Below are positions 52,513 through 61,800 of a DNA stretch of 64,000 bases, in pieces. Each line of letters begins with the position of its first letter. Positions within the stretch are counted from its first letter, which is position 1. Source of the DNA: an uncultured Saprospiraceae bacterium (GTDB lineage: Bacteria; Bacteroidota; Bacteroidia; Chitinophagales; Saprospiraceae); the NCBI GenBank assembly GCA_964621185.1, contig CAZULM010000029.1, positions 987 through 64,986 of the forward strand. The letters run 5' to 3'. The notes under the pieces are model-generated. The model searched no databases and was not told the DNA's origin. It saw nothing but the letters and a program-made list of their open reading frames with translations. The position numbers were made by a program, and so were the translations under genes.

Positions 52513-52657
52513 ATACAGTTTTCTGCTTAGTAGTCTGTAAACGCGGAGCGTTTCTTTTATTCTGTGTCAACTTCGCCCCAAAAGTTGACCCGGTGGCCCA
52601 CCAAGGACATATAATGTTAATGCACAGGCCAAAGCTTTGCGCTTCCAGAAAAAAACC

Positions 52658-52665
52658 TATTTTTG
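52658..52665 (+). promoter_or_regulatory. Candidate -7 box TATTTTTG
   Basis: Exact TAnnTTTG match, but 222 nt upstream of the ATG at 52887. Confidence 0.25.
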
Positions 52666-52886
52666 TCCCGCGCATTGCCCGGTTTCCTTCCATTCCCTGC
52701 GCAGGGGGGCAGTTGCGCAGCAGGCCTGCTTATATTAATCCGCCCTTGTGTGGTTGAGTTCAGCTTTGCTGCACAAGGTTGATCGTTTCAAGTATCTCTT
52801 ATTTTACGGCTATCTCAGAAAAGTTTTGCCCACCGGCATCGGTAGGCACTCGAAACTTATACCTTTTACCAAAAAATTTTTCAGAC

Positions 52887-55800
52887 ATGAAAAACACAAA
52901 TTTCTATCTTTCAGGCGCCGTATCGTGCCGAAACACGCAAAATTCCCCGAGCTTTCCTGCGGGGGGGGGGGGCAAAGCCCCGTTTTCGTTCATTTTTCTC
53001 CTTTTTTGGGTAATGGCCTGTTTTTTCGCTGAATCGGCAGCAGGGCAGAATGGCGGGCCGGGGAGTTCCTGGACCTCCGGGGTCAATTTTGGCACCAACA
53101 GCCCCAGTGCTGAAGATACCTGGGCTTTCGATGCTGCCGAAATGCCCAATGGCGACTTGGTCATTGTGGGATACGCAGAGACAGGAGATGGCGATGTCCG
53201 GGTGCCTGCCTTTGCTGTGCTTAACAAATACGGCGAGCTTTTAACTTCTCAATACATCACTGGATATCCTGGCGTATTCAGCCAGGTTGACCTGTCTGAT
53301 GATGGGACATATTTGATTTTGGCAGGATTCCGTGGACTCCCTGACGATGACGACCCCGGAGACAGCGAATCGCCCGAGAATGCTGATGCCCTATTGACGA
53401 GGCTTAATTTTATCGGCCAGGGATACTACGTTGATTGGTCCCAACAGTATGCCGTGGGGAAAACGACGGAAGTCCCGGACGGCAACGGCGGCAACTTCCC
53501 GTTTGTCACCGGACAGGAACGCTTCACCTCGGTTGATATTACGCCCACCGGCACTGTTGTCTTGAACGGAGGGCTCAGGAAGGGCAACAGCGCCAACCCC
53601 GAATTTGGCTACCAGTTTATTTATGTGGTGACTTCAGATGGCGATTTTGTCTCTGAACGCATCTTTACCGAAACAAACGGCTTCTTGAGCGATTGCAAGG
53701 TGGTGAATATCAACGGAGTAGAATCCATAATCTTTACTGGGTTCCAGCAAATGGGGAACGGCGCCTGGAAATTCGAGATTACCGACAACACGCCAAATTC
53801 GGACAACAAGCCCTTTATAAACAGCAAGCACCCGATATGTGACCGAGACATCGTGATCGGCAAACTTGCGCTGAACGACCTCCAAAACGGATTTATTAAA
53901 TACTATAACGGCAACAGCTATCCCTACTCCAATTATGCTTATGACGACCCTCAAAATCCAGGGGCGCCGACCTACATAAACCCTCATACAGGGATATGGG
54001 ATGCGCCGGATATCGACGAATGTCCCGACAAGTTTGGGCCCTGTACCCCGGGCAAAAGTGTTCCAGGATGGGGCTTCGCAGCAGATGGCAGCAAAAGTGG
54101 ATCCCCGGCAATAGACAAATACCTCGGCATCACATCCTGCGATATAGGCAAGAGCATCGTGTACAAAGATGGTTATATCTACGTCGCAGCAGAGGTGAAT
54201 ATGCTTGAATTCTCTGGGAGCCAGTACAACAATTTACAGTTCAGCGAACCCCACCCGGGTGCGGAGATTCCCGGCAAGGGCGTGCTCCTGAAGGATCGGT
54301 GCGATGGGGACAACTGGTGGTATTCCGCCTATAAAGATGCATCCATCCATATTATCAGGGTAAAAGCCGATGGCACAGGCGGCGCTTTCGTTAAAAATGT
54401 GGCCCATTTCAGCGGCGGGGACTTCGCCCCTGCCCTGATCGTCGATCAGACCGACGGTAACCTCGTCTTGGGCGGCAACAGCGGGGATGACGGCGTTGGG
54501 GCTTGCTTCCCGGAAATGGACAACTGCCACGGAGAGGAGAACATGCTGATCAAACTTGACATAAACACGCTCGACGTGATATGGCAGCAGTCGCACCTCG
54601 CTTATGGGCACGGCAATTGTGTCTTTGGCCTGATCCAGACCGCCGACGGGGGATATGTGCTCGTAGGCAACAATGAACTGGAGGGCGACCACGAGACCTT
54701 CAACATCATCCGGTTTACTCCCGACTGCCAGGGCAAAGCCAATTTCCACCAGGATGGCGACTATCTTGTCACATCAGCCGACGAGCAATGGTCGCCCGCC
54801 AACAAGCCCAACCCTTACCGTTTCCGGGGAAATGTCATCGTCCCGAACGGTAAGAAACTCACCATTAAAGATGGCCTGGTGGTAGAGTTCGCCAGCACGA
54901 AAGCCACCCCTGACCACCGAAAATCCGGGATCACCGTGCAAGCAGGGGGCAACCTGGATGTGTTGGGGGCATCCGTCCTCAAAGGCATAGACTGTGGCGG
55001 GGAGAACATGTGGGACGGCATCACGGTGCTGGGCAACCCGAACGCGCCCGCTGGCCCGCAGCAAGGCAGGGTGTCGGTCACTGGCTTGTCCAGGATCGAG
55101 AACGCAGTGCGCGGCGTCGTGCTGGGGAATACCGCCTGGGCGACCGAAACCAGGTACCTCAACGATGGTAACACCCTCGGCACCAATATTGCCGATACCT
55201 ACATGGACAACTTAGGCATGGGCGGTGGAAGGATTTTTGCGGGGAACGCGACTTTTTACAATTGCGGCAGAGGCGTAGTGTGGGAGCCACAGCCGGCTTT
55301 TTCCAACCTCAGCACACTGATCAACGCCAAGTTTGAGTTCACTGGGGGGCTTGCCGACCCGATGTACGCGTTTATGCCCGATTGGCCCTCCAGCGGCCGA
55401 CCAACGGGCGCCGAACTGGGCTGCCGCCTGCGGTCGGTGCGCGACGTGCGGTTCATCAACTGCTCCTTTGTCGCCACGGCGCCGGTCGGCTTCTACCCGC
55501 TCCAGCGTAACCGCCCGAGCGGCATATATGCCACCGATGCCAAGTTTTCCTTCTCAGGCGGCGGGTTCCCACAACATTTCGAGAACCTGTACATCGGCAC
55601 AGAATCCGCCTCCATGCTGGCCGGCCTGGCCACCACCCTCAGCTTCAGCGGCGCGAAGATGAACAACGTGTATCAGGGCCTAAACGTAAGGGGCAATATC
55701 GCCCCAAACATCGCAGGCTGCCATTACACCAACATCCCCGAAGAAGGGCAGCTGAAAGATGGCACCCCGGTGGGGGTCTTTACCCTGAACACCCAGGGCA

Positions 55801-57038
55801 TCGCTCTAAGCGGCAACGAATTCAGCTCCGATGCCGATTACAAGTCCTTTGGCGCCATCACCCAAAATACCCTCGGCACCGGCGGCGCAAAAGTAGCGCA
55901 CAACACTTTCACCGACATGAACATCGCCAACCTCTTCGATGGCGACAACTCCGCCCTGCAGACACACTGCAATACTTATCAGGGTGATGTGGGGGATGTT
56001 TCTTGGAATGTGAAGGGGGTACTGGCGAACCAAGGGAATCCATTAAACCCATTGACTCCTAAGCCAGACAATAAATTTCTCTGGGACTGCGGTGCGCCGC
56101 TATTAGACATTAGCAACGGTAATTCACAGCCTTTTTCTTATTTTGAACGGCTAGAATCACCAAGCAATACAAGTTCAATAGTCAAATGCACGGAGAATGT
56201 GGTCGTTTTTTTTGACAACTCAGATGCTGGTGCAGCAAATTGTGTCATAGAAGACCCCTGCCCCAACCCGCCGAACTGCTACACCCTTGCCACAGCCTAT
56301 ACAAACAGTGGCCATGCATTGCCGTATCGCAACGACCTGCTCAATGCCTATGTTCGGATGCAGCCAACAGCAGTTCCCGATTCGCTTTCTCTGCCAGGGA
56401 CCACGCGAGGGATCGACTTGCTGCTGACCCGGGGCCAACAGGAAGACAAGCGTATCCTGGTGGCAACTTATACATCTTTGGGCAATTTTAGTGCCGCCCA
56501 GCAGTATCTGCAACAGGTATCAGGCGCCTCTGCCGAGACCCAGGATTTTATTGCCTATTATGCTGTGTTGGTCAATGCGGGCCTGGCTGGCCGTGACGCT
56601 TACCACCTGACATCCTCGGAATTTGCCCAATTGGCGCCCTTGATGGCCAACAGCAGCACGGTGGCAGATCAGGTAAAAGTGCTCGACCATGTTCTGAACG
56701 GCGTGTATCACCCGCTTTCCGCAGAATCGGAAAACAGCGGCCGGACTGGGAACCGGGAAGGCGATGCTTCAAGTTTGAGCCAATCCAAAAAGCTGCTCGT
56801 TTTCCCCAACCCTTTCAGTGAGGCCCTGCGTTTTGCTGCGCCGGAAGGTCTGTCCATTTCCATGCTCACGATCACGGATATTTCCGGCAAGCACCTGTAT
56901 GAGCAGCGCTTTAGAAAATCTGAATCGTTGGTCAATTGGCAGCCCAACGACGTGCCTGCTGGAATATTATTGTACCGATGCGTCCTTTCCGACGGAGAAT
57001 CAGTGCATGGAAAGCTCCTTTACACAAAAAATCAATGA
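52887..57038 (+). CDS. Large (1383 aa) secreted protein with propeller-like N-terminal repeats, beta-helix-like centre and T9SS type-A CTD
   Basis: Start at the ATG at 52887 (MKNTNFYLSG...), hydrophobic segment FSFIFLLFWVMACFFAESAAG. C-terminus LLVFPNPFSEALRF...GILLYRCV. Its stop overlaps the next start (ATGA at 57035-57038). Confidence 0.75.
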   Translation: MKNTNFYLSGAVSCRNTQNSPSFPAGGGGKAPFSFIFLLFWVMACFFAESAAGQNGGPGSSWTSGVNFGTNSPSAEDTWAFDAAEMPNGDLVIVGYAETGDGDVRVPAFAVLNKYGELLTSQYITGYPGVFSQVDLSDDGTYLILAGFRGLPDDDDPGDSESPENADALLTRLNFIGQGYYVDWSQQYAVGKTTEVPDGNGGNFPFVTGQERFTSVDITPTGTVVLNGGLRKGNSANPEFGYQFIYVVTSDGDFVSERIFTETNGFLSDCKVVNINGVESIIFTGFQQMGNGAWKFEITDNTPNSDNKPFINSKHPICDRDIVIGKLALNDLQNGFIKYYNGNSYPYSNYAYDDPQNPGAPTYINPHTGIWDAPDIDECPDKFGPCTPGKSVPGWGFAADGSKSGSPAIDKYLGITSCDIGKSIVYKDGYIYVAAEVNMLEFSGSQYNNLQFSEPHPGAEIPGKGVLLKDRCDGDNWWYSAYKDASIHIIRVKADGTGGAFVKNVAHFSGGDFAPALIVDQTDGNLVLGGNSGDDGVGACFPEMDNCHGEENMLIKLDINTLDVIWQQSHLAYGHGNCVFGLIQTADGGYVLVGNNELEGDHETFNIIRFTPDCQGKANFHQDGDYLVTSADEQWSPANKPNPYRFRGNVIVPNGKKLTIKDGLVVEFASTKATPDHRKSGITVQAGGNLDVLGASVLKGIDCGGENMWDGITVLGNPNAPAGPQQGRVSVTGLSRIENAVRGVVLGNTAWATETRYLNDGNTLGTNIADTYMDNLGMGGGRIFAGNATFYNCGRGVVWEPQPAFSNLSTLINAKFEFTGGLADPMYAFMPDWPSSGRPTGAELGCRLRSVRDVRFINCSFVATAPVGFYPLQRNRPSGIYATDAKFSFSGGGFPQHFENLYIGTESASMLAGLATTLSFSGAKMNNVYQGLNVRGNIAPNIAGCHYTNIPEEGQLKDGTPVGVFTLNTQGIALSGNEFSSDADYKSFGAITQNTLGTGGAKVAHNTFTDMNIANLFDGDNSALQTHCNTYQGDVGDVSWNVKGVLANQGNPLNPLTPKPDNKFLWDCGAPLLDISNGNSQPFSYFERLESPSNTSSIVKCTENVVVFFDNSDAGAANCVIEDPCPNPPNCYTLATAYTNSGHALPYRNDLLNAYVRMQPTAVPDSLSLPGTTRGIDLLLTRGQQEDKRILVATYTSLGNFSAAQQYLQQVSGASAETQDFIAYYAVLVNAGLAGRDAYHLTSSEFAQLAPLMANSSTVADQVKVLDHVLNGVYHPLSAESENSGRTGNREGDASSLSQSKKLLVFPNPFSEALRFAAPEGLSISMLTITDISGKHLYEQRFRKSESLVNWQPNDVPAGILLYRCVLSDGESVHGKLLYTKNQ
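52961..52972 (+). repeat. G12 homopolymer inside the 5' coding region (codons for AGGGG)
   Basis: Counted directly: c at 52960, twelve g at 52961-52972, c at 52973. Confidence 0.95.
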
Positions 57039-58594
57039 CCGTGCGGAAGATATTGGCACTGGCGCTGCTCACCCAGGTTTGGGTGGGCAGCGCCCAGGTT
57101 TATTTTAGTAAACAAATAGACTGGATGAATAATTATGAATCCTTGGGATTTATTACAACCACCAAAGACTATGGGAATTTCCTAGTATCTGGAGGTAGTT
57201 TTAGTCTAGATCCATGGTTAGAACAAGCTTTTTTTGCGAGATTTGACAATCTGGGAAATATAAAAGGAACTGGCGTAAGCCTTCCATCTGGGAGCCATTT
57301 CGGTAGTTCAAGAGATGCGATTACTTTAGATAGTACTTACAGCTTGATAATGGGTTCGTTTTATATATATTCCAATGGAATTGAAAACGCCCAAATGTTT
57401 CTCATTAAAATTAATACACTGACTGGTGACACAATCTGGACTAGACATTATGGGTTACCAGATAAGCATGACTTCGGGAAAAAATTAATAAAAACGAAAG
57501 ATAGCGGCTATGCTGTTGCAGGAAAGACTTTTTTGGCCACTAATCAACCTCCAGAGAAAATTCTTTTGTTCAAAATTGATAGCAGTTGGAATCAGGTTTT
57601 CAGAAAAGAGTATTCAACAAATCTTGCAAATGCCCATAATGGCTGGGCAATAACAGAAACCGTTGATCATGGATTCATTCTATCCTGTTCTATAGTTTAT
57701 CAAGGGCTTTGTGCAGGTTGCGCTACAGTTGATTATATGAATGATATTCTTTTGATCAAAACCGATGCTCTTGGGAATCAGCTTTGGACAAAAAGGTTGG
57801 CCCCTACGGAATGGAAACAGTATAGCTGGGGCGGATTTGATATTCAGCCTCTGCCTGACAGTACAATTATTATTTTCGGCAATAAATATTACCACATTTA
57901 CAATCAAACATTTTCCGACTACTCCCGCTATATGCTCTTTAAGTTCAACATGGATGGTACCCTTTTAGACTCAACTTCTTTTGGTGGTGGAGATGGAACA
58001 CTTATTACAACCACTATTCCTACTACAGACAAGAATTTTTTGGCGGCTGCTACAGAAAACGACTCATCATTTGTTGGCATCGGGCAGACTGGAGTACTGT
58101 TGAAAATTTCACCTTCTCTTGAATTGCTTTGGAAAAAGGAATACCGCATTAGCCCGCCGGGGGTAAAGTTTTATGAAAAATTTTTTGATGCGATTCAATT
58201 ACCGGACCAAGGATTCATTGTTTGTGGCAGCGCATATGAAGATAGCACTAAGCAAAACGGCTGGATACTCCGCGTGGACTCCCTCGGCTGCCTCGAACCC
58301 GGCTGCGACGGCAGCAGCGCCGCCCCGGAACCGCCCGGCGAAGGCCCGGGCATCGCCCTGTCGCCCAACCCCACCGGCGGGGCCTTTCGCATCGCGCTCA
58401 CCCGCCCGGGCGAGGTGCTGCTCGGGGTGCGCCTGCTCGACCTGCAAGGGAGGCTGATCAGCGACCTGCAGTACCTCCGCAGCGCCGGCTGGCGGGAATG
58501 TGAGCTCGACTTGTCGGGGCAGCCGTCGGGGGCGTACTTGGTGCAGGTGCGCACGAGGGCGGGCTGGGCGCTGCGGAAGGTGCTGAAACAATGA
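57035..58594 (+). CDS. Secreted propeller-like protein with T9SS type-A CTD (tandem paralog A)
   Basis: Signal peptide MTVRKILALALLTQVWVGSAQ. AT-rich body (about 37-40% GC). GC-rich 3' module SPNPTGGAFRIALT...GAYLVQVRT. Confidence 0.8.
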   Translation: MTVRKILALALLTQVWVGSAQVYFSKQIDWMNNYESLGFITTTKDYGNFLVSGGSFSLDPWLEQAFFARFDNLGNIKGTGVSLPSGSHFGSSRDAITLDSTYSLIMGSFYIYSNGIENAQMFLIKINTLTGDTIWTRHYGLPDKHDFGKKLIKTKDSGYAVAGKTFLATNQPPEKILLFKIDSSWNQVFRKEYSTNLANAHNGWAITETVDHGFILSCSIVYQGLCAGCATVDYMNDILLIKTDALGNQLWTKRLAPTEWKQYSWGGFDIQPLPDSTIIIFGNKYYHIYNQTFSDYSRYMLFKFNMDGTLLDSTSFGGGDGTLITTTIPTTDKNFLAAATENDSSFVGIGQTGVLLKISPSLELLWKKEYRISPPGVKFYEKFFDAIQLPDQGFIVCGSAYEDSTKQNGWILRVDSLGCLEPGCDGSSAAPEPPGEGPGIALSPNPTGGAFRIALTRPGEVLLGVRLLDLQGRLISDLQYLRSAGWRECELDLSGQPSGAYLVQVRTRAGWALRKVLKQ

Positions 58595-58634: not shown

Positions 58635-60203
58635 ATGACCGTGCGATATTTCTTGGCACTGGCGCTGCTCATCCAGGTTTGGGCGGGCAGCGCCCAGGTC
58701 TATTTCAATAGGCAGATAGACTGGGAGCATCAATATGAATTTCTTTCTGGTATTGCATTAAATAATGATGGAGAGGAAACCTTTGTTGTTGGTGGCGCTG
58801 TAGATGTATTTTCAACTCAAAATTATTCTGTAATTGCCCAACTTGATTCCAATGGTGATTATTATTGGAAAGGAACTTTCTCCCCTGATTCCAACTTGTA
58901 CGGACAGACTTATCATCTTGAAACCCTTACAGGAAATTACGCATTACTATTAGGAAACTATTGGAAATTATTGCCAGATGGTACTTTTAATCTACAGATT
59001 TATTTAACAAAAATAAACACTCAAACCAATAGCGTAGCTTGGACAAAAGAATTCGGTCAGAACACTATTTCTGAGCAAGGATGGACAATTCAGAAAACCC
59101 AAGCTAATGGAGCCATAATTTGCGGGGGAAGTTTACTTGAAAACAATTCAAGCCACACAAAAATGCTCCTCCTCAAAACCGACAGCCTCGGTAACCAGCA
59201 ATTCCGCAAAGAATATACCACCGATCCCAGCATGGACCACTATGCGTATTCGCTGGTGCAAACTGCGGATGGGGGGTATCTGATATTGGGGGTGCGTGCA
59301 TATTTTGGCACATATCAGGGAGGTGTTGGCACCATCCATAAAAATGATTTGGTGCTGCTCAAAACCGACACTCAAGGCAATCAGCAATGGGTTAAAATTT
59401 ACGCTCCCTGGGAATGGAAACAGATTTTATATAATGGGTTCGATATCCAGCTGTTGGCTAATGGTGACTTTATTACTGTTGGTGCTAAAAGTTATGCTAT
59501 TTTTGAACCAAACAATACATACACAGGCAAATATTTTTTGGCAAGGTTCAACCCCCAGGGTGAGATTGTCGATTCGGTCACACTCCCCAAAAGCTACTAT
59601 TTTTTCAAAGTAAACCGCCTCAAGCCCTCCCACGACGGCAATTTCTGGGCCATCGGCGCCGAAAAAGACTCTTCCAGCACCGGCCAGACGGGCCTGATCA
59701 TGAAAATCACGCCCAACTTGGAAATCTTGTGGAAGCGCGAGTACCGGGTAAGCCCGCCGGAGTCCATGCTGCACGAAATGTTCTACGAGGGGGTGGAGAT
59801 GCCCGACCACGGCTTTGTGCTGTGCGGCGGCGCGTTCGGTCCGCTGGAGGACAGCACCAACGCCAACGGCTGGGTCATCCGCGTGGACTCCCTCGGCTGC
59901 CTCGAACCCGGCTGCGACGGCAGCAGCGCCGCCCCGGAACCGCCCGGCGAAGGCCCGGGCATCGCCCTGTCGCCCAACCCCACCGGCGGGGCCTTTCGCA
60001 TCGCGCTCACCCGCCCGGGCGAGGTGCTGCTCGGGGTGCGCCTGCTCGACCTGCAAGGGAGGCTGATCAGCGACCTGCAGTACCTCCGCAGCGCCGGCTG
60101 GCGGGAATGTGAGCTCGACTTGTCGGGGCAGCCGTCGGGGGCGTACTTGGTGCAGGTGCGCACGAGGGCGGGCTGGGCGCTGCGGAAGGTGCTGAAACAA
60201 TGA
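58635..60203 (+). CDS. Secreted propeller-like protein with T9SS type-A CTD (tandem paralog B)
   Basis: Signal peptide MTVRYFLALALLIQVWAGSAQ. The N-terminal body is divergent from paralogs A and C. The 3' module is identical. Confidence 0.8.
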   Translation: MTVRYFLALALLIQVWAGSAQVYFNRQIDWEHQYEFLSGIALNNDGEETFVVGGAVDVFSTQNYSVIAQLDSNGDYYWKGTFSPDSNLYGQTYHLETLTGNYALLLGNYWKLLPDGTFNLQIYLTKINTQTNSVAWTKEFGQNTISEQGWTIQKTQANGAIICGGSLLENNSSHTKMLLLKTDSLGNQQFRKEYTTDPSMDHYAYSLVQTADGGYLILGVRAYFGTYQGGVGTIHKNDLVLLKTDTQGNQQWVKIYAPWEWKQILYNGFDIQLLANGDFITVGAKSYAIFEPNNTYTGKYFLARFNPQGEIVDSVTLPKSYYFFKVNRLKPSHDGNFWAIGAEKDSSSTGQTGLIMKITPNLEILWKREYRVSPPESMLHEMFYEGVEMPDHGFVLCGGAFGPLEDSTNANGWVIRVDSLGCLEPGCDGSSAAPEPPGEGPGIALSPNPTGGAFRIALTRPGEVLLGVRLLDLQGRLISDLQYLRSAGWRECELDLSGQPSGAYLVQVRTRAGWALRKVLKQ

Positions 60204-60243: not shown

Positions 60244-61800
60244 ATGACCGTGCGAAAGGTATTGGCACTGGCGCTGCTCGCCCAGGTTTGGGTGGGCAGC
60301 GCCCAGGTTTATTTTAGCAAACAAATAGACTGGATGAATAATTATGAATCCTTGGGATTTCTTACGACCACAAGAGACTATGGGAATTTCCTAGCATCTG
60401 GAGGTAGTTTTAGTCTAGATCCATGGTTAGAACAAGCTTTTTTTGTGAGATTTGACAATCTGGGAAATATAAAAGGAACTGGCGTAAGCCTTCCATCTGG
60501 GAGCCATTTCGGAAGCGCTAGAGACGCAATCACTCTGGACAGCTTTCATAGCCTGATTGTGGGTTCATTCTATGTGTTTTCGAATGGAATTGAAAACGCT
60601 CAAGTATTTCTAATCAAGATCAATACTTTGACTGGAGACACTATTTGGACGAGACAATACGGCAAACCTGATCGGAATGAATTTGGGAGAAGCATTATTA
60701 GAACCAAAGATCAGGGATTTATTTCATTGGGGTTTTCATATTCGTCCAATAATCAGCCGCCCGAAAAAATATTGCTTATTAAAGTTGATAGCATTGGGGG
60801 TTTAGTATTTAGAAATGAGTATTCAACTAACATTTCACACAATCAAAGGGGCTGGGCGATAGTTGAAACCACTGATGGAGGTTTCTTGTTATCGTGCAAT
60901 GATAACTTCCAAGGAGTATGTTTTGGATGTTCATCAACTGGTTTTTTAGCCGATATCTTGTTATTAAAAACAGATGCCCTCGGAAATCAACAATGGTCAA
61001 AGGTTTTTCAAGCTTTAGAGTGGATGCAATACACTTGGTCAGGCTATAACTTTATTCCGATCACAGATTCAACTTTTGCTTTATTGGGCAATAAAGGCTA
61101 TCGGGCCAATGGGAATCAGAGTGGTTATTTTAATTATTTCCTGTTTATTCTAAATTCTGATGGGAATATTATTGATTCAACCTCATATAAAGGAGGGGTC
61201 GATGCCGTTCCTACAAGTTTAATAAAATTGCGAGATGGAAATTTATTGATCACGGGGTCAGAAAACGATTCACTAATGGGAAGTATAGGGCAAACAGGGG
61301 TTTTAATGAAATTAAATCAATCTCTCCAACTTCAATGGAAAAAAGAATATCATATAAGTCCACCTGGAACCCCTATTTATGATAGATTCTTTGAAGCTAT
61401 TCAAATGCCTGATTTCGGCTTTGTTGTTTGCGGAAGTTCTTATGAGGATTCCACTAAGCAAAACGGCTGGATACTCCGTGTGGACTCCCTCGGCTGCCTC
61501 GAACCCGGCTGCGACGGCAGCAGCGCCGCCCCGGAACCGCCCGGCGAAGGCCCGGGCATCGCCCTGTCGCCCAACCCCACCGGCGGGGCCTTTCGCATCG
61601 CGCTCACCCGCCCGGGCGAGGTGCTGCTCGGGGTGCGCCTGCTCGACCTGCAAGGGAGGCTGATCAGCGACCTGCAGTACCTCCGCAGCGCCGGCTGGCG
61701 GGAATGTGAGCTCGACTTGTCGGGGCAGCCGTCGGGGGCGTACTTGGTGCAGGTGCGCACGAGCGCGGGATGGGCGCTGCGGAAGGTGCTGAAACAATGA
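60244..61800 (+). CDS. Secreted propeller-like protein with T9SS type-A CTD (tandem paralog C)
   Basis: Signal peptide MTVRKVLALALLAQVWVGSAQ. The first ~270 bp are about 95% identical to paralog A, then identity decays. Same 3' module. Confidence 0.8.
   Translation: MTVRKVLALALLAQVWVGSAQVYFSKQIDWMNNYESLGFLTTTRDYGNFLASGGSFSLDPWLEQAFFVRFDNLGNIKGTGVSLPSGSHFGSARDAITLDSFHSLIVGSFYVFSNGIENAQVFLIKINTLTGDTIWTRQYGKPDRNEFGRSIIRTKDQGFISLGFSYSSNNQPPEKILLIKVDSIGGLVFRNEYSTNISHNQRGWAIVETTDGGFLLSCNDNFQGVCFGCSSTGFLADILLLKTDALGNQQWSKVFQALEWMQYTWSGYNFIPITDSTFALLGNKGYRANGNQSGYFNYFLFILNSDGNIIDSTSYKGGVDAVPTSLIKLRDGNLLITGSENDSLMGSIGQTGVLMKLNQSLQLQWKKEYHISPPGTPIYDRFFEAIQMPDFGFVVCGSSYEDSTKQNGWILRVDSLGCLEPGCDGSSAAPEPPGEGPGIALSPNPTGGAFRIALTRPGEVLLGVRLLDLQGRLISDLQYLRSAGWRECELDLSGQPSGAYLVQVRTSAGWALRKVLKQ

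Follow-up and report, generated by a model that had tools for sequence, protein, structure and literature searches.

The stretch of DNA analysed here (the window; 64,000 nucleotides from an uncultured Saprospiraceae bacterium) carries a gene for a predicted large secreted protein of 1383 amino acids (aa), whose coding sequence runs, close to its 5' end, through an unbroken tract of guanines. The tract, at positions 52961-52972, consists of exactly 12 G (flanked c-GGGGGGGGGGGG-c) and covers codons 25-29 of a 1383-codon open reading frame (ORF) that extends without interruption on the plus strand from an ATG at 52887 to a stop codon at 57036-57038. The ORF begins with MKNTNFYLSGAVSCRNTQNSPSFPAGGGGKAPFSFIFLLFWVMACFFAESAAGQNGG... 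and reads ...SPSFPAGGGGKAPFSFIFLLFWVMACFFAESAAGQ... A conserved motif and a predicted stem-loop lie upstream of it, its leader contains a second, smaller hairpin, and three shorter tandem genes follow downstream (Table 1). The tract is the longest homopolymer of the window, the runners-up being 8 nt, and it sits in the middle of a 71-kb contig. An earlier examination of the letters alone (the sequence-only reading) had singled out G12 as the longest homopolymer found in the window and had placed it inside the coding frame of the 1383-aa protein; its position, its frame and its rank all hold.

The sequence-only reading had further argued that slippage by +1 or -1 would shift the frame before the export signal, and changing the tract length in silico agrees with this. 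The frame is open at G9, G12, and G15; G11 and G14 lead to a stop after 41-42 aa (41 for G11), and G10 and G13 to a stop after 47-48 aa (48 for G13). The export signal, as judged by eye, is a Sec signal peptide made up of K30, an 18-residue hydrophobic core, and an AAG/Q junction, the A-x-G/Q form of which is kept in all homologs, and it is present only when translation starts at ATG 52887. The in-frame codons leading from the tract into the core (GGC AAA GCC CCG TTT TCG TTC ATT TTT CTC CTT TTT TGG GTA) include no ATG, GTG, or TTG. As had also been claimed, no in-frame ATG lies between the tract and the hydrophobic segment; the first, at 53013, is already within that segment.

It is probable that G12 acts as a slipped-strand contingency switch in the N-terminal leader coding region of a cargo gene of the type IX secretion system (T9SS), a reading that is held here with good confidence. 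Translation from ATG 52887 has to cross the G run before reaching the signal-peptide core. At G12 (or G9, or G15), the 1383-aa protein would be made and could be exported, and replication slippage that gains or loses one G would put the ATG out of frame and end translation after 41-48 codons. Single cells would in this way toggle the surface protein on and off, reversibly and heritably, and the likely benefit would be a varied exposure to phages, grazers or surfaces. A frameshift so early in the first gene would plausibly lower the expression of the whole downstream block, and polarity, together with the ATGA overlap between the big gene and the next, would probably carry three downstream T9SS genes along. 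Phase variation had been proposed by the sequence-only reading, and it gains support from the conserved tract, the mixed frames among relatives, one ortholog seen at both G11 and G12, and about 15 tracts in the same genome. For the window locus, the interpretation is thus supported by comparison and not proven at the locus.

Homologs of the protein were drawn from an index of 5.8 billion proteins, in which they are confined to metagenome-assembled genomes (MAGs) of Saprospiraceae/Lewinellaceae, and the matching DNA was compared as a set of loci (named L0xx); almost all of the comparison sequences are metagenome assemblies. Among 400 same-family genomes searched at the protein level, no homolog turned up beyond the genome of the window itself, and a scan of JGI metagenomes for a near-identical copy of the window locus, using a pattern of exact flanks, gave 0 matches. 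All of the loci have a common layout, consisting of the AAAGTTTTG motif, the hairpin, CATGAAAAACA, a leader of 72-77 nt, and a pure G run. Thirteen loci, the window included, carry this run at the same codon (~25) of the same ATGAAAAAC (MKN) leader. The run is in frame in seven of them and out of frame in four; one further locus is polymorphic, and the remaining one is L051. A comparison of tract length among relatives had been suggested by the sequence-only reading, and it gives G8-G12 in mixed frame states, with one ortholog at G11 or G12. The downstream frame of the out-of-frame loci is intact for 1,300+ aa in L014, L021, and L023, and is open to the end of the locus in L053 and L054. Since the pure G run is kept while the leader peptide evolves without codon-position bias, conservation would appear to act at the level of the DNA. 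Several relatives have a pair of ATGs ahead of the tract, each in its own frame (ATGATTTTTCAAC-ATGAAAAAC), so that two of the three phases are translatable. Judged from these loci, the window locus belongs to a predicted promoter/leader/poly-G cassette common to Saprospiraceae/Lewinellaceae. Three contigs of other assemblies end at or inside the tract, and assembly breaks of this kind will hide such switches from surveys.

The most direct evidence for slippage is provided by the polymorphic ortholog. Its copies in a Lake Mendota bin (L015, G11), an ENA assembly (L039, G12), and another JGI sample (L040, G12) do not differ at any position in the 300 nt upstream or the 4,193 nt downstream (100.00% identity). 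The product calls on record are of two kinds, 1373 aa (as at G11) on 3 contigs and 1428 aa (as at G12) on 4 contigs. At G12, an ATG located 13 nt upstream of ATGAAAAAC, in another frame, becomes the in-frame start (P0015); with this second ATG in frame, two of the three phases would be translatable in this ortholog.

The arrangement recurs within the genome of the window (G000; 6.4 Mb, 127 contigs, 52.9% GC), in which every G or C run of at least 8 nt was oriented and the ORF downstream of it examined. Some 15 ORFs, 640-1383 aa in length, have a homopolymeric G or C tract (8-12 nt) between a short Met-leader and the signal-peptide core, with the exception of C41, where the run directly follows the signal peptide. 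The window locus is one of these approximately 15 similar putative switches on large secreted-protein genes. Pfam scans, which took in the 14 loci of Table 1 other than the window locus as well as C87:19557 (penicillin amidase), returned a Por_Secre_tail match in 11 of the 15 scanned ORFs at E <= 0.01, 8 of them above the Pfam cut-off; further domains among the scanned tract-bearing ORFs are beta-helix, PKD, cohesin/dockerin, and an M12-type protease. Four of the genes (C58:36903, C75:17862, C75:24475, and C5:185568) are cohesin/dockerin-like paralogs with ~200 nt of near-identical upstream DNA, and the tract region is different in each: aaaaaat[G10]c, aaaaaat[G8]agc, aaaaaatc[G9]c, and aaaaaatga[G9]c. 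In this family, ATGs precede the tract in all three frames, so that one start or another would allow translation at any tract length, suggesting an output that is graded rather than binary.

Two further kinds of run were observed in this genome. One, at C17:49273-49341 and mid-contig, is a block of 69 nt of nearly pure C (C13-T-C40-T-C14), which represents an artefact (of sequencing or assembly) or else a hypervariable tract of an extreme kind. The other comprises G10-G11 runs at C38:54179-54189, C92:9348-9358, and C103:4838-4847, each followed by CGAAAAC... and two of them with near-identical flanks; these are a repeated element with its own homopolymer and do not stand at the 5' end of a long ORF.

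The existence of a G12 is by itself uninformative, since a model of independent, identically distributed (i.i.d.) bases already predicts ~1 G/C run of at least 12 nt in this genome. G/C runs are strongly depleted at 6-9 nt (~4-fold at 7 nt) and are not depleted at 10-12 nt. Of the runs of at least 8 nt, 23/88 are located at the 5' ends of long ORFs, compared with a 12% background of random sites (p = 2 × 10−4). Among four-glycine runs in long ORFs, 1/90 is spelled GGG-GGG-GGG-GGN, presumably the window tract. The context of the run (its enrichment at 5' ends, codon choice, and conserved position) is not due to chance. Counts of GGGGGGGGGG in 60 genomes of the genus were dropped; they had counted overlapping windows, and some of the assemblies contain very long, probably artefactual poly-G.

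The strongest of the rival explanations, although an unlikely one, is that the tract is a passive poly-glycine spacer within a long n-region of the signal peptide, the lengths reflecting neutral drift and assembly errors and the 'off' relatives being mis-assembled or decaying. The absence of constraint on the leader peptide, the single run expected under the i.i.d. model, the preponderance of MAGs among the comparisons, and an intact mismatch repair system would all be consistent with this notion. A glycine spacer would, however, not be expected to stay pure G in 13 diverged loci, given that GGG accounts for just 18.6% of Gly codons, and it would not account for C runs, which would encode proline, at the same position in other genes. 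Furthermore, out-of-frame loci retain long open downstream frames, the G11 and G12 products each occur on several contigs with flanks that are identical where checked, and the tracts are enriched at the 5' ends of genes for secreted proteins.

The region preceding the leader is conserved as well. The AAAGTTTTG motif is kept as (G/T)AAAGTTTTG(T/C)C in 9 aligned loci and recurs in front of three further tract-bearing genes in the genome of the window. In the window (52820-52860) and in the counterparts in L013-L023, it is directly followed by a 10-bp hairpin and then by ACCAAC...ATGAAAAAC, and three pairs of this stem-loop are changed on both sides with pairing retained. This conserved region is probably a promoter followed by a 5'-terminal mRNA stem-loop. 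The same 5' region was also observed in front of genes that have no G tract (L046, L049). A scan of 52600-53100 against Rfam gave no match. A sigma-54 promoter, considered on account of an upstream TGGCA motif, was rejected on inspection as the GG-N10-GC spacing is absent. Between 52300 and 53200, the inverted repeats around the promoter are just short imperfect pairs (10-21 nt, 71-92% complementarity), and an invertible promoter (inverton) was rejected for this locus, the promoter having no flanking inverted repeats.

These 5' features bear on a second, distinctly less probable alternative, in which the tract lies in an untranslated leader or an upstream ORF (uORF) and its length acts via mRNA structure, uORF coupling, or transcription, the protein itself starting downstream at ATG 53013 or at a non-canonical codon. 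The deposited annotation does begin at 53013, the leader shows no codon-position bias, two hairpins are conserved in the 5' region, and some orthologs have an in-frame TTG or GTG after the tract. Translation from ATG 53013 would, however, give a product starting MACFFAESAAG-Q. This lacks an n-region, its hydrophobic stretch spans ~5 residues, and it is not fit for the Sec export of a T9SS cargo; the deposited product is thus predicted to have no usable signal peptide. The window, L014, and L020 contain no ATG, GTG, or TTG between the tract and 53013 or its equivalent, CATGAAAAACA is invariant, and the main frame is open back to the tract in every locus. The one clean indel in the leader, which is not explained by substitutions at the tract edge, is 3 nt long (L019). 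Most members of the family (the window gene at 53013 and homologs P0003-P0011) have been called from an internal Met within the signal peptide, and as a consequence, the public annotations of these proteins are devoid of an export signal.

A third explanation, which is to be regarded as very improbable, is that RNA polymerase slippage or ribosomal frameshifting on the G run yields some full-length protein at any tract length, making the tract a dimmer and not a heritable switch. The long open downstream frames of out-of-frame orthologs are consistent with this idea, and slippage during transcription of long homopolymers is known to occur, one case being poly(A) in Buchnera (PMC2831843). Known productive slippage is, however, mainly found on A or T runs, and slippage in expression would add to, and not replace, the DNA-level length variation seen in the G11/G12 ortholog. 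That the length of 12 is simply an assembly error scarcely merits belief: poly-G is error-prone on Illumina two-colour and nanopore platforms and this assembly contains the implausible block on C17 and G runs at contig ends, but the run is in frame with a 1383-aa ORF (a one-in-three chance if its length were random), it is mid-contig on a 71-kb contig, orthologs show the tract independently, and a different true length would alter the current state and not the nature of the feature.

Several points weigh against a slipped-strand switch at this locus. We infer switching at the window locus itself from relatives and sister genes. MutS and MutL are intact in this genome, and switching rates may consequently be below those of the repair-deficient Campylobacter and Helicobacter. 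The leader shows no constraint at the amino-acid level, its substitutions being distributed 59:71:66 over the three codon positions. A GTG at 52925, which is 49 nt before 52974 and in frame only when the tract changes by -1 or +2, is put in frame at G11 and would start a plausible signal peptide (MPKHAKFPELSCGGGGKAPF...), and the -1 state may therefore be leaky instead of fully off; this GTG is absent from L013 and is located in a hairpin arm. In L015, L019, and L021, a normal signal peptide could be initiated at an in-frame TTG or GTG that follows the tract, and the tract would then matter only in part in these orthologs. Finally, homopolymer lengths in MAGs can be mis-called, long-read assemblies being especially error-prone.

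Table 1. Features of the window, tract-bearing genes of the same genome (contig:position), and tracts in related loci. Frame states in the genome are relative to the upstream ATG; those of the four-paralog family use the nearest in-frame ATG and are provisional.
Feature	Location	Strand	Details
AAAGTTTTG motif, candidate Bacteroidota-type -7 promoter element	52820..52828	+	common to orthologs; putative promoter role
Stem-loop TTGCCCACCG-gcat-CGGTAGGCAC, predicted transcript 5' end	52826..52849	+	RNAalifold consensus helix, alignment A1 columns 37-60
Start codon and 24-codon N-terminal leader (MKNTNFYLSGAVSCRNTQNSPSFP, then first two bases of Ala25)	52887..52960	+	CATGAAAAACA invariant in 9 loci
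Small leader hairpin GGCGC-N6-GTGCC, contains GTG 52925	52914..52929	+	consensus helix, alignment A1 columns 131-146
G12 homopolymer, proposed slipped-strand switch	52961..52972	+	last base of Ala25, Gly26-28, first two bases of Gly29
Predicted Sec signal-peptide core: K30, hydrophobic APFSFIFLLFWVMACFFA, ESAAG, likely cleavage before Q53	52974..53042	+	read from translation
Internal ATG, start of deposited gene call P0002 (1341 aa, begins MACFFAESAAGQ)	53013..53015	+	first in-frame ATG after tract, inside hydrophobic segment
1383-aa putative cargo gene	52887..57038	+	AlphaFold2 model, Foldseek, TIGR04183
519-aa T9SS cargo gene	57035..58594	+	TIGR04183 25.7 bits; ATG overlaps big-gene stop (ATGA)
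Two further tandem paralogs of 519-aa gene	58635-60203, 60244-61800	+	BLASTP 51% and 73% identity; PF18962 matches
Genome tract	C29 (window locus)		G12, in frame
Genome tract	C16:78827		C12, in frame
Genome tract	C81:26223		G11, out of frame
Genome tract	C12:45432		C11
Genome tract	C37:47260		G10, long leader out of frame; junction ATG in frame
Genome tract	C37:53465		G10, out of frame
Genome tract	C58:36903		G10, in frame
Genome tract	C10:14526		C10
Genome tract	C5:185568		G9, long leader out of frame; ATG at -4 in frame
Genome tract	C75:24475		G9, in frame
Genome tract	C75:17862		G8, in frame
Genome tract	C3:31417		G8, out of frame
Genome tract	C5:34373		G8, out of frame
Genome tract	C41:31055		G8, out of frame
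Genome tract	C57:34453		C8
Related loci in frame with ATGAAAAAC	window, L041, L013, L020, L018, L019, L042/L043/L045		G12, G9, G8, G9, G11, G10, G8, respectively
Related loci out of frame	L014, L021/L022, L023/L054, L053		G10, G11, G8 (G-to-A interruption), G11, respectively
Polymorphic locus	L015, L039, L040		G11, G12, G12, respectively
Related locus, frame state not assigned	L051		G9; downstream frame 212 aa only
Contigs ending at or inside tract	L016 (1-60), L052, L055		other assemblies; one with poly-C junk

The protein behind the tract is proposed to be a T9SS type A cargo, that is, a large secreted surface protein with a sorting domain at residues 1305-1370. TIGR04183 matches these residues with E = 0.004 and a score of 17 bits, which falls short of the 23-bit cut-off, and the C-terminus reads LLVFPNPF...GKLLYTKNQ, resembling that of its neighbours. 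Homologs P0003, P0004, P0013, and P0014 carry PF18962, and the NCBI name of homolog P0010 is 'T9SS type A sorting domain-containing protein'. The genome contains at least 150 PF18962 matches above the cut-off, of 482 candidates, and judged by this count would use the T9SS. A Pfam scan of the 1383-aa protein returned no family at E <= 0.01, and a PDB sequence search returned no match. An AlphaFold2 model, built on an 11-sequence alignment and with a mean pLDDT of 62, predicts a ~7-bladed beta-propeller (residues ~53-610), followed by a beta-helix (~630-1030) and a helical region (~1130-1250). With this medium-confidence model, Foldseek found only generic beta-propellers (CylK, WD40, sialidases), and no function was assigned.

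The pair formed by the big gene and a gene of ~520 aa is present in all orthologous loci, and the ATGA overlap suggests translational coupling of the two. The bodies of the three tandem T9SS paralogs (519-530 aa) are 51-73% identical, and their last ~100 residues, which hold the sorting domain, are identical or differ by one residue, suggesting gene conversion of the 3' module. Replacement may affect the big gene too. In L021 and L039, which seem to represent a single chromosomal locus, the flanks show 89-99% identity and the flanking genes together with the promoter-leader cassette 80-99%, but most of the cargo gene body has no blastn match between the two. This suggests allelic replacement or strong diversification of the cargo body behind a conserved switch cassette, which fits a surface protein under diversifying selection. 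A natural deletion variant of 667 aa, in which residues 1-298 of the window protein are joined to residues 998-1383, was observed on the JGI contigs L042, L043, and L045, with the same cassette and G8, in frame in three samples.

Judged from the related loci and the same-genome tracts, the finding is not isolated but is part of a genome-wide and lineage-wide pattern. A bolder conception, put forward only tentatively and with some doubt, is that promoter, 5' hairpin, ATGAAAAAC leader, and poly-G form a portable module that has been recombined before diverse, rapidly replaced T9SS cargo genes, some copies having starts in two or three frames and hence a graded output. The result would be a stochastic surface phasome of ~15 genes in a free-living bacterium, probably directed against phages or grazers, an organised system of a kind not described for the T9SS or for this phylum. 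Should the tracts switch in the way proposed, a common freshwater and activated-sludge lineage would individualise its T9SS-displayed surface in each cell by means of ~15 independent switches, which would bear on phage-host dynamics, on attachment in flocs and biofilms, and on the reading of strain heterogeneity in metagenomes. In practical terms, gene callers systematically mis-start or split these genes, and contigs are broken off at the tracts during assembly.

In host-adapted pathogens, phase variation through slippery repeats is textbook knowledge; Bacteroidota are generally regarded as depending on invertible promoters, and to our knowledge, environmental bacteria are rarely considered in this context. 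In the open-access full-text literature, no paper was found that treats phase variation by homopolymers in T9SS cargo or in members of the Saprospiraceae, an absence that is not proven. The closest known system is provided by pilC1 and pilC2 of Neisseria gonorrhoeae and N. meningitidis, genes for large surface proteins that likewise have a poly-G in the part coding for the signal peptide. Frameshifts in the pilC tract are described as causing reversible on/off expression (PMC13017665, citing Jonsson et al. 1992). Like the Neisseria host, the window organism is mismatch-repair proficient, as judged by its intact MutS and MutL. Unlike PilC, a pilus-tip adhesin of a host-restricted pathogen, the window protein is a putative T9SS cargo of a free-living environmental bacterium, and the 24-codon leader ahead of its tract belongs to a cassette common to many genes. 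The proteins are unrelated, the window protein having no Pfam family, no PDB sequence match, and generic beta-propeller fold matches only; membership of the PilC/PilY1 adhesins was considered and set aside as there is no sequence homology, the likeness being mechanistic only.

Other systems resemble the tract in single respects. The lic1A and lic2A genes of Haemophilus influenzae, which encode lipopolysaccharide-modifying enzymes, have tetranucleotide repeats near the 5' end with starts in more than one frame before them, as is the case for the relatives with two ATGs and the paralog family with three, and for the GTG that comes into frame at G11 in the window; unlike these genes, the window locus has a homopolymer and a single ATG. 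In Neisseria opa, a multigene surface family whose copies switch independently, CTCTT repeats lie in the leader-peptide coding region, the position also taken by the run at the window locus. The opa repeats are, however, pentanucleotides and the proteins small outer-membrane beta-barrels, in contrast to the homopolymer found here. Invertons of Bacteroidales serve the same biological end, the stochastic on/off expression of surface structures, by a different mechanism, and no inverted repeats flank the promoter region of the window.

At the level of the genome, the nearest parallel is with the phasomes of Campylobacter jejuni and Helicobacter pylori, described as G/C runs of ~8-12 nt, genome-wide, mostly in surface-structure genes and in mixed on/off states within a single genome (PhasomeIt, PMC6321876). 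The genome of the window likewise has G/C runs of ~8-12 nt in mixed states throughout, but its tracts are specific in position, falling after the start codon and before the signal-peptide core of putative T9SS cargo. The Campylobacter and Helicobacter genomes are small, AT-rich, and devoid of MutS/MutL-type repair, in contrast to the 6.4 Mb, 53% GC, and intact MutS and MutL found here. With MutS and MutL intact, the window system resembles those of Neisseria and Haemophilus more than that of Campylobacter. The mechanism, simple-sequence contingency, is thus well known; new is its setting, which is that of T9SS cargo in a free-living member of the Saprospiraceae, as a genome-wide set with a common cassette.

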